A stretch of 58,696 nt of DNA from an uncultured Candidatus Saccharibacteria bacterium (GCA_964364225.1 CAYIKP010000001.1:3789-62484); one strand, 5' to 3'. Shown: positions 11,082 through 11,249, numbered from the stretch's first letter. Numbers and translations: made by a program. Notes: generated from the letters alone by a model not told the origin.

Positions 11082-11109
11082 GCTTCCGTATCTTTAGGTA
11101 ATATAGGGA

Positions 11110-11249
11110 ATGAATCCCGTAGTAGAAAATGGCATTAGAGCAGTTGTGGGATAATAAAGAATATGGGGGGTCGACAGTTAAAAATAACTAATAATAAATA
11201 GTGGCAACCTGCTCTGTGGAGCAATGCCATTTTTCACTATCAGGATGAA
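11110..11249 (+). repeat. start-codon hairpin element, copy A (ATGAATCCCGTAG...ATCAGGATGAA)
   Basis: 5' arm 11110-11142 and 3' arm 11218-11250 pair (aaaatggcatt/aatgccatttt perfect 11 bp; agagcag/ctgctct; gttg/caac); each arm is 30/33 identical to copy B; mini-ORF MNPVVENGIRAVVG at 11110-11154; the last ATG (11245) starts ligA. Confidence 0.75.

Follow-up and report, generated by a model that had tools for sequence, protein, structure and literature searches.

We describe a family of short hairpin-forming elements that reside on the start codons of unrelated genes in one orientation. The three copies in the DNA analysed here (58,696 nucleotides, hereafter the window), located in front of ligA, fba and pilT, are insertions and not a gene-specific RNA switch. 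We put at roughly 0.7 the probability that the family is a non-autonomous element of the MITE kind that settles at start codons, couples an old AUG by way of a hairpin to a new AUG, and is a nearly harmless selfish insertion. We could not find an earlier description of a mobile element with a start-codon niche; the literature was searched for the concept as well as for the terminal 10-mers, and no account of this one emerged.

Three copies of the element in the window

The initial annotation had recognised three related elements, and all of them were found where it had placed them: copy A at 11,110–11,249, copy B at 56,964–57,105 and copy C at 4904–5025. Each has the proposed shared termini, reading ATGAA-TCCCGT...C(G/A)GGA-TGAA, and folding of each sequence reproduced the long imperfect hairpin, with energies of −34.9, −41.6 and −36.1 kcal/mol for A, B and C and z-scores of −2.35, −5.55 and −4.92, respectively, relative to dinucleotide shuffles. 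The reverse strands of the three hairpins fold equally well. Exactly three occurrences of the 11-mer ATGAATCCCGT were counted in the window, compared with about 0.03 exact matches expected by chance from simple arithmetic over 58.7 kb and two strands. A mismatch search combined with an inverted-repeat scan of the window revealed no fourth copy, and the inverted repeat I8 (13,266–13,384), considered as a further copy, proved unrelated to the element. Copies A and B are 94% and 84% identical across the two repeat blocks of their arms and share a rare variant of the terminal stem, found outside the window at only three loci among the listed copies (L009, L099 and L215); copy C represents the mainstream type. 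The coordinates of the elements and their associated features are collected in Table 1.

Table 1. Positions of the three elements and neighbouring features, counted from the first nucleotide of the window.
Feature	Position	Strand	Remarks
Copy C, left ATGAA and mini-ORF MNPVRNRGHETNK with stop	4904..4945	+	
Copy C, core TCCCGTTAGAAAC...GTTTCTAACGGGA	4909..5021	+	113 nt, mainstream type; last A is the A of the pilT ATG
Copy C, right duplicate TGAA	5022..5025	+	
pilT-like T2SSE ATPase gene	5021..6091	+	true start MNSSEH
−10-like TAATAT of the leaderless ligA promoter	11099..11104	+	orthologous empty sites have TATAAT/TAAAAT
Copy A, left end: original ligA ATG plus AA	11110..11114	+	TGAA is the left target duplicate
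Copy A, mini-ORF MNPVVENGIRAVVG with stop	11110..11154	+	spans the whole 5' hairpin arm
Copy A, core TCCCGTAGTAG...CACTATCAGGA	11115..11245	+	131 nt, A/B-type stem; last A (11245) is the A of the ligA ATG
Copy A, right duplicate TGAA	11246..11249	+	TG of the ligA ATG plus AA
ligA, NAD-dependent DNA ligase	11245..13266	+	true start MKVSKK
−10-like TAAAAT	56950..56955	+	8 nt before the left ATG of copy B
Copy B, left ATGAA (56964–56968) and mini-ORF MNPVVENGIRAS with stop	56964..57002	+	
Copy B, core	56969..57101	+	133 nt, A/B type; last A is the A of the fba ATG
Copy B, right duplicate TGAA	57102..57105	+	
fba, class II aldolase	57101..57967	+	true start MKTLKEY

The final ATG of each element had been proposed as the start codon of the downstream gene, and it is indeed the native start of ligA, fba and pilT, as element-free homologues open at the same Met. 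Public gene calls for ligA begin at 11,224, inside the element and 21 nt upstream of the true start. The host DNA is a 110.8-kb contig that derives from the 0.1-µm filter fraction of Hainich groundwater and belongs to a CPR/Patescibacteria genome; the nearest named ligA homologue (84% identical) is annotated as ‘Minisyncoccia bacterium’.

Comparison with relatives shows what these sites look like when vacant. Three relatives whose ligA is 84%, 76% and 70% identical share the syntenic order pilus-ligA-gatCA with the window and lack the element, showing one ATG(AA) per site; in loci L250, L251 and L253, the positions at ligA and pilT are vacant. The ATG of the empty ligA sites lies 6–8 nt after TATAAT or TAAAAT, indicating a leaderless gene. 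The TAATAT reported for the window is likewise present, 5 nt before the left ATG of copy A, and it would now drive a transcript starting at or near that ATG. Element-free fba homologues have TACAAT or TAAAAT 6–7 nt ahead of their ATG, and the same Met opens fba, topA and rpmE in more distant homologues that lack the element. At the empty pilT sites (L251 and L253), pilT overlaps the response-regulator gene by ATGA within a single ATGAA, and in the window the TGA at 4905–4907, within the left ATGA of copy C, is the stop codon of the response-regulator ORF 4500–4907.

Contigs of the same strain that contain the upstream response regulator all carry copy C or end at it; assemblies break there, as expected of a repeat. 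Exact-protein look-ups with ligA, pilT and fba translated from the true ATG found no element-free contig of this strain on record.

A dispersed family with target duplications

The element core, TCCCGTTAGA...TCTAACGGGA, has near-perfect terminal inverted repeats, and its typical length is 105–135 nt. A genome scan with one genome per species and the pattern TGAATCCCGT-N(90-120)-CTAWCRGGATGAA yielded at least 120 loci, and a flank-free metagenome scan used the self-complementary pattern TCCCGTTAGA-N(85-115)-TCTAACGGGA, whose listed matches are a lower bound. Over both scans we recovered more than 250 copies, mostly from Patescibacteria. Those listed are 62–142 nt long, and the window holds three in 58.7 kb. 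Lineages among the listed matches include Kaiser-, Wolfe-, Jorgensen-, Lipton-, Nomura-, Yanofsky-, Zambryski-, Vogel-, Yonath- and Kerfeldbacteria, MAGs labelled Saccharibacteria, and others; beyond Patescibacteria, they comprise a few contigs of Sedimentisphaerales, Planctomycetaceae, Omnitrophota and Limnocylindrales. A search of 2.9 million viral contigs with the exact hairpin pattern gave no copies. The initial annotation had been unable to match the element to any riboswitch or ribozyme class, and this was borne out: Rfam has no family for it, only tRNAs reach the gathering score in the window, and copies A and C gave nothing meaningful at E values up to 10.

We classified the junctions of 107 listed oriented copies from the flank-free set. 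A perfect 4-bp duplication flanks 75 of them and a 4-bp duplication with one mismatch another 11, while two have a 5-bp duplication, TGCAA (TGGAA also occurs in L215). Eleven copies lack a duplication and have a stop codon directly against the element, two have a CTTG left flank, and six fall into none of these classes. The duplication is not uniform, and the stop-codon class and the recurrent CTTG flank speak against the insertion model. The right flanks of the same 107 copies read TGAA in 68, TGGA in 13, TGAG in 10, TGCG in 5, TGGC in 4 and TGTA in 3; TG opens all of them by construction, since orientation was assigned from the terminal A followed by TG. Copies away from start codons show the duplications TAAA, TTTA and TCAA. 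Tandem arrays with a common junction occur at L009, L040 and L237, and the ligA site itself has turned over, with an A-type copy in the window, a C-type copy in L091 and none in the three syntenic relatives.

The family thus combines terminal inverted repeats, a site-dependent duplication, presence/absence polymorphism and many dispersed short copies, features by which MITEs are recognised. One of the two original hypotheses, a MITE-like origin with a TGAA duplication, is borne out by the empty sites, the variable duplications, the tandem arrays and the unrelated downstream genes. Its corollary, that copies are retained where an ATGAA start is regenerated, understated the association, as 85–94% of copies lie at starts versus the approximately 30–36% expected. 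The element, moreover, contributes the A of the restored ATG irrespective of the two bases that come next.

Residence on start codons in one orientation

Of 127 listed copies in the genome scan, 120 have a 3' ATG that begins an ORF of 60 codons or more, or one that continues past the end of the locus, the exceptions being mostly upstream members of tandem arrays. In the flank-free scan, 106 of 125 listed copies have, in exactly one orientation, a terminal A that completes the ATG of a long ORF with the TG that follows, and several of the remainder are shifted by 1–3 nt, with the ATG within or just past the duplication. Whether every copy ends on a start codon had been asked at the outset; the great majority of the listed copies do. 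The base before TGAA in the genome scan is A in 122/127 listed copies and G in 4/127, and at the four copies whose left flank reads GTG the gene now has an ATG.

To estimate how often starts would be hit by sequence preference, we counted unoccupied ATGAA sites in the same 1.74 Mb; crude gene calls place 257–386 of them at gene starts and 4058 within genes, with 681 in non-coding DNA. Target sequence combined with intolerance of coding insertions therefore predicts only about 30–36% of copies at starts. Nearly identical siblings that share a genome (L118 and L047) both occupy starts, which argues against pure survivorship.

The 239 listed copies precede genes of 179 families, including ligA, fba, pilT, topA, murG, rpmE, valS, pheT and ftsW, and thus define no regulon. 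Transcription-start targeting was rejected as a general rule because 34% of occupied starts among the listed copies lie within 5 nt of, or overlap, the end of an upstream ORF (background, 16%) and a strict −10 box stands 6–9 nt upstream of only 48 of 199. Orientation, too, is fixed. As the interior marker we used a CCTR motif that immediately precedes the terminal stem's 3' strand; 112 listed copies have it in this forward position and 6 have it mirrored, and a symmetric search with the same marker gave 50:2. Given that the ends are symmetric, this bias implies either directional insertion or strong transcript-level selection for one orientation.

A paired terminal stem around a free interior

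The first and last 10 nt of the element, positions 1–10 of the terminal stem, are invariant in the 239 listed oriented copies. Positions 11–13 vary and yet remain Watson–Crick paired in 234, 225 and 227 of the 239, with four pair types at each, where shuffling of partners predicts about 118, 108 and 114 paired copies, respectively; position 14 is mostly a mismatch. The covariation that the initial annotation expected of a larger alignment is therefore seen at positions 11–13. Sequence is not conserved in the interior (mean column identity, 29%), and clustering of the listed copies by interior gave 181 independent groups. In all, 239/239 listed copies fold better than their own shuffles, at −37.7 versus −20.4 kcal/mol, indicating, together with the maintained pairing, that pairing of the arms is selected or built into the copying mechanism.

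No signal specific to the RNA strand emerged from the listed copies: G–U and A–C mismatches are about equally frequent (24 vs 28), and sense and antisense folding energies do not differ (123:115). Arm pairing could act in single-stranded DNA rather than in RNA. Reading the consensus by eye, we saw no convincing internal promoter or Shine–Dalgarno sequence in the 3' arm. As a plain helix is the only conserved part, we set aside a ribozyme as well as processing by RNase P, by RNase Z or at a bulge-helix-bulge.

An upstream reading frame depleted of stop codons

The left ATG of each copy had been described as opening a mini-ORF, and the three sequences proposed for the window are as claimed (Table 1). 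Reading both sequences also confirmed that the three differences between A and B within the shared codons are synonymous. Because conservation of the peptide does not extend past MNPVR, itself encoded by the invariant repeat, compensatory pairing explains these changes equally well. The invariant left end, ATG AAT CCC GTT AGA, contains no stop, and the other two frames stop immediately. Across the listed copies, the interior is stop-free in the mini-ORF frame in 89 of 207, compared with 24–34 in each of the other five frames; in a shuffle control, 12.3 ± 3.0 of 130 were stop-free against 50 observed. The depletion appears in both sets of listed copies (genome, 49/124; metagenome, 40/83) and is kept when one copy per interior cluster is counted (44% open).

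Where these frames end relative to the gene depends on the distance between the two ATGs. Among the 207 listed copies, a distance that leaves remainder 0 modulo 3 would fuse the mini-ORF to the gene; this class has 41 copies, of which 3 are open. With remainder 1 (99 copies, 58 open), the frame meets a conserved TAA 7 nt before the gene ATG, and with remainder 2 (67 copies, 28 open), the TGA of ATGA. Fusion to the gene almost never occurs. Apart from MNPVR and what the 3' repeat encodes, the peptides have nothing in common, suggesting that the selected property is the passage of ribosomes and not the peptide. Of the mini-ORFs, 57% stop early, including the three in the window (12–14 codons), and termination–restart coupling consequently cannot be the sole route of expression; even the shortest, of 6 codons, crosses the 5' strand of the invariant stem.

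At the other side of the hairpin, at least two of the three nucleotides of the gene AUG are paired in 236 of 238 predicted folds of the listed copies with flanks included, in agreement with the earlier proposal that the main AUG is sequestered at the base of the stem. The accompanying idea that mini-ORF translation opens this stem received indirect, statistical support as an explanation of how the insertion is tolerated: stop depletion, the position of the ends beside the gene ATG and the pairing of the AUG speak for it, and we saw no evidence of a regulated switch. The two hypotheses offered at the start, a translational device and a mobile element, are each partly right and are thus not alternatives. 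The frame statistics point to translation through the hairpin followed by restart at the gene.

Proposed mechanism and alternative explanations

The reading we favour is as follows. The element has inserted within start codons, after the first base and ahead of the TG, in most cases with duplication of TGNN; because it ends in A, the right junction again reads A followed by TG, and the gene keeps an ATG start. The old start codon stays at the left junction together with its promoter, Shine–Dalgarno sequence or overlap with an upstream stop, so that the transcript would begin with or contain the series old AUG, hairpin, new AUG. Ribosomes would initiate at the old AUG (in ligA and fba it would form the 5' terminus of a leaderless mRNA), probably during transcription. 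Translation of the mini-ORF into or through the hairpin would melt the stem that holds the real AUG. In many copies, those with a long frame, they would stop either at the UGA of AUGA or at the conserved UAA that precedes the real AUG by 7 nt, hence on this AUG or 4 nt ahead of it, and would then restart. Translation of the mini-ORF and its coupling to the gene are thus probable on the statistics of the reading frames. The 4–5-bp duplication points to a DDE enzyme with a staggered cut as the likely transposase. A DDE transposon with symmetric ends would be expected in both orientations, and we know of no way in which it could recognise a start codon. In about 1.7 Mb of flanking DNA, with collection scans spanning up to 600 nt, we saw no cognate autonomous element and no transposase flanked by the termini.

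A stronger form of this reading, to which we give somewhat less than an even chance, holds that the family is dedicated to homing on start codons, which would serve it as a safe harbour: it would supply its own A (turning GTG, and possibly TTG, into ATG), carry a built-in frame that hands ribosomes on, and possibly restrain or tune translation initiation across the genome. A MITE of the plain selfish kind, with no adaptation at the RNA level and a preference for the pentamer ATGRR, would dispense with such targeting, since intragenic copies would be lethal, intergenic copies elsewhere would be deleted from streamlined genomes, and copies at starts would persist because imprecise deletion kills the gene. 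The listed copies do have a target preference: A precedes the duplication in 122/127, the third and fourth bases of the duplicate are purines (78% and 82% A), and 68/107 carry TGAA; non-start copies exist with the duplications TAAA, TTTA and TCAA, and ligA displays visible turnover between an A-type copy, a C-type copy in L091 and three empty sites. We nonetheless consider a plain MITE unlikely. It leaves the observed excess at starts (85–94% against about 30–36%) and the presence of young duplicate pairs already at starts to be explained, its 112:6 orientation would need transcript selection or a directional mechanism, and neither stop depletion confined to one frame nor a modulo-3 bias that avoids fusion is expected of a neutral insert.

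The strict orientation is more readily accommodated if the element is a structure-specific single-strand recombination site, the folded hairpin being the substrate of a tyrosine recombinase or an HUH (Y1) enzyme. A conserved terminal stem with covarying pairs, an interior free in sequence and length, equal folding of sense and antisense strands, and the copies without a duplication all fit such a site, and Y1_Tnp (RAYT-like) genes occur in the same genomes at six loci, at approximately single-copy frequency (PF01797 above the cut-off in four of the six, NF047646 below it). However, 86 of the 107 listed copies have a 4-bp direct duplication that varies with the target, and we know of no HUH or tyrosine system, IS200/IS605 and integrons included, that makes one. 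The core order GTTAGA...TCTAAC is opposite to that of attC, no linkage to a recombinase was seen, and the RAYT-like genes are flanked by short palindromes of their own, such as TACAAGGTTCAACCTTGTA, and not by the element, so that they are not linked to it. A single-strand site is in our judgement very unlikely. A serine recombinase with a TG crossover and element-borne AA, and an IS200/IS605 element with an element-borne right cleavage site, were both rejected because the non-AA duplications match on both sides. A dedicated cis-regulatory RNA for ligA, fba and pilT (riboswitch, thermometer or attenuator), with mobility incidental or ancient, would account for a start codon predicted to be held at the stem base, for the upstream mini-ORF and for a 10-bp helix kept across phyla, which would suit a conserved RNA-binding protein. 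Against it stand the lack of any Rfam match even at E up to 10, unpaired nucleotides that are not conserved (mean column identity, 29%), unrelated downstream genes, presence/absence differences among close syntenic relatives, and tandem copies. These make such an RNA extremely improbable, and the ligand-specific switch reading is largely refuted.

Comparison with known systems

In size (100–150 bp), terminal inverted repeats, target duplication, many dispersed non-coding copies and a transcript in which the whole element forms a hairpin, the family resembles the Correia elements of Neisseria, ERIC/IRU, RUP and the Rickettsia palindromic elements, the last of which are tolerated within expressed genes. 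To our knowledge, none of these has been described as resident on start codons, rebuilding the ATG, fixed in orientation and preceded by a stop-depleted frame. They are also restricted to single genera, whereas the present element spans many orders of Patescibacteria and a few other phyla.

Likeness to piggyBac/IS1380 lies in the 4-bp, sometimes 5-bp, duplication of the T..A type and in CCC beside the duplication. The seamless excision of piggyBac would suit an element living on start codons. The TTAA of piggyBac/IS1380 is palindromic, however, and our element uses mainly TGAA/TGNN with an extra T/A pair before CCC. Duplication length and CCC-type ends make a piggyBac/IS1380-like enzyme a possible lead only. 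Variant piggyBac duplications include TAAA, TCAA and TATG (PMC10813416), all of which are also found at copies of the element.

Integron attC sites and REPIN/RAYT systems share with the element a short conserved stem, compensatory pairing, freedom of interior sequence and length, and strand or orientation specificity. The attC order is RYYYAAC...GTTRRRY, in contrast to GTTAGA...TCTAAC, which our element reads on either strand; attC sites form cassette arrays through intI with no duplication, whereas the element is flanked by duplications and scattered before housekeeping genes. In REPIN/RAYT, the RAYT gene is flanked by the dispersed repeat, and here the Y1_Tnp genes are flanked by different, short palindromes. 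Palindromes derived from IS200/IS605 make no duplication, have separate sub-terminal hairpins and insert 3' of a fixed tetra- or pentanucleotide; the ends of our element instead pair with each other, and its variable duplications match both sides.

On the translational side, the ermC leader peptide, the MS2 coat/replicase pair and AUGA termination–restart are alike in that an upstream ribosome melts the helix hiding the next start, and AUGA overlaps also in that translation stops within a few nucleotides of the next AUG. T4 gene 60 bypass and the mitochondrial ‘byp’ elements are further examples of a mobile hairpin that persists in an essential gene by way of translation. The element would differ from the ermC, MS2 and byp systems in that insertion itself creates its upstream ORF and start, and in that its peptide is unconstrained. 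In addition, unlike in the ermC and byp systems, nothing at the element indicates regulation or ribosome hopping, and the likeness is one of sequence statistics.

Implications

The family is best read as a MITE with a start-codon niche, a self-supplied start base and a putative coupling frame, and we see a substantial chance that a new targeting mechanism lies behind it. If insertion is truly directed to starts, there is a new principle of DNA targeting to be found, and the use of start codons as safe harbours would resemble that of essential genes by self-splicing introns and inteins. The invariant 10-bp helix predicts a protein partner conserved across the radiation.

A more immediate consequence concerns annotation. 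Gene callers place the starts of ligA, pilT and fba within the element, adding 7–15 spurious residues, and with assemblies also breaking at copies, wrong N-termini are likely to be numerous in public CPR proteomes.

An estimated tens of housekeeping genes per genome are occupied; if true, the element could tune initiation in Patescibacteria, which are rich in leaderless mRNAs. Hundreds of independent insertions in unrelated genes would provide a natural replicated experiment on how ribosomes gain access to a structured internal AUG that lacks a Shine–Dalgarno sequence in such organisms.

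Turnover and variant copies of the element

At the ligA start codon, the locus L091 (3940-4049, minus strand), which comes from another genome and whose ligA protein is 75% identical to that of the window, carries a C-type (mainstream) element at the exact site occupied in the window by an A-type element (11115-11245), the rarer terminal-stem variant. The same site is empty in three relatives that are closer than L091 or similarly related. This start codon has either received repeated insertions or had one element replaced by another.

A recurrent class of copies carries CTTG on the left (TATAAT-N7-9-CTTG|TCCCG), where an ATGNN duplicate would be expected; the right flank is an ordinary gene start, TGAA or TGGA. 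TTG starts combined with a 2-bp duplication may account for this class. One subfamily, TCCCGTTAGACCT...AGGTCTAACGGGA, 113-114 nt in length, was found in L041, L051, L052, L053 and L093; the contigs that carry these copies are long, and their bins are assigned to Sedimentisphaerales, Planctomycetaceae, Omnitrophota and Limnocylindrales. Their presence there reflects either inter-phylum transfer or mis-binning.

Y1 transposase genes in the same CPR genomes

Six loci encode an IS200-like/RAYT-like Y1 transposase, for which the top NCBIfam match, under the cut-off, is the REP-associated tyrosine transposase. Each gene is flanked by a short perfect palindrome of its own, as with TACAAGGTTCAACCTTGTA on either side of the L025 gene. 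Their abundance in these CPR genomes is approximately that of a single-copy gene.

Coordinates of element copies, transposase genes, direct repeats and gene calls
Feature	Locus	Position	Strand	Detail
CTTG-class copy	L029	4812-4919
CTTG-class copy	L059	~560-663
CTTG-class copy	L099	~2562-2630	-
CTTG-class copy	L114	5647-5772	-
CTTG-class copy	L114	6913-7188	-
CTTG-class copy	L222
CTTG-class copy	L144
Y1 transposase	L025	3586-4245		PF01797
Y1 transposase	L012	278-988		PF01797
Y1 transposase	L054	1746-2474	-	PF01797
Y1 transposase	L078	32-637		PF01797
Y1 transposase	L090	41-658		PF01797
Y1 transposase	L006	7356-8000		PF01797
Direct repeat pair	window	48161-48302 / 48650-48791		142 nt, 80% identical
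Direct repeat pair	window	54516-54616 / 55029-55129		101 nt, 77% identical
ligA as called	window	11224-13266		7 spurious N-terminal residues
pilT as called	window	4994-6091		9 spurious N-terminal residues
fba as called	window	57056-57967		15 spurious N-terminal residues

Other features of the window

The two direct-repeat pairs, each spaced by about 0.5 kb, are probably internal or tandem duplications of coding sequence. An imperfect inverted repeat between the ligA stop and gatC (13266-13384; 21-nt arms, 81% complementary), across which the public record calls a 39-aa ORF, does not belong to the element family. The window also holds seven tRNA genes, some clustered (15810-16179, 18383-18559, 21444-21514 and 40588-40672); close to them are two small ORFs with a GIY-YIG domain, at about 20201-20455 and about 21406-21900. 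In the syntenic relative L253, a LAGLIDADG-domain ORF (11815-12486) separates the gatA-neighbour gene from the ABC-F gene; the matching window region has none.

Effects on gene calls and assemblies

ORF and gene calls wrongly place the starts of ligA, pilT and fba within the element, at ATG or GTG codons of its 3' arm, and ligA stands in the public record as 680 rather than 673 aa. Several same-strain assemblies (L245, L247 and L248) end just inside copy C, the element before pilT, their contigs stopping 26-36 nt past the response-regulator gene upstream of it. Metagenome assemblies are broken by the element repeat.
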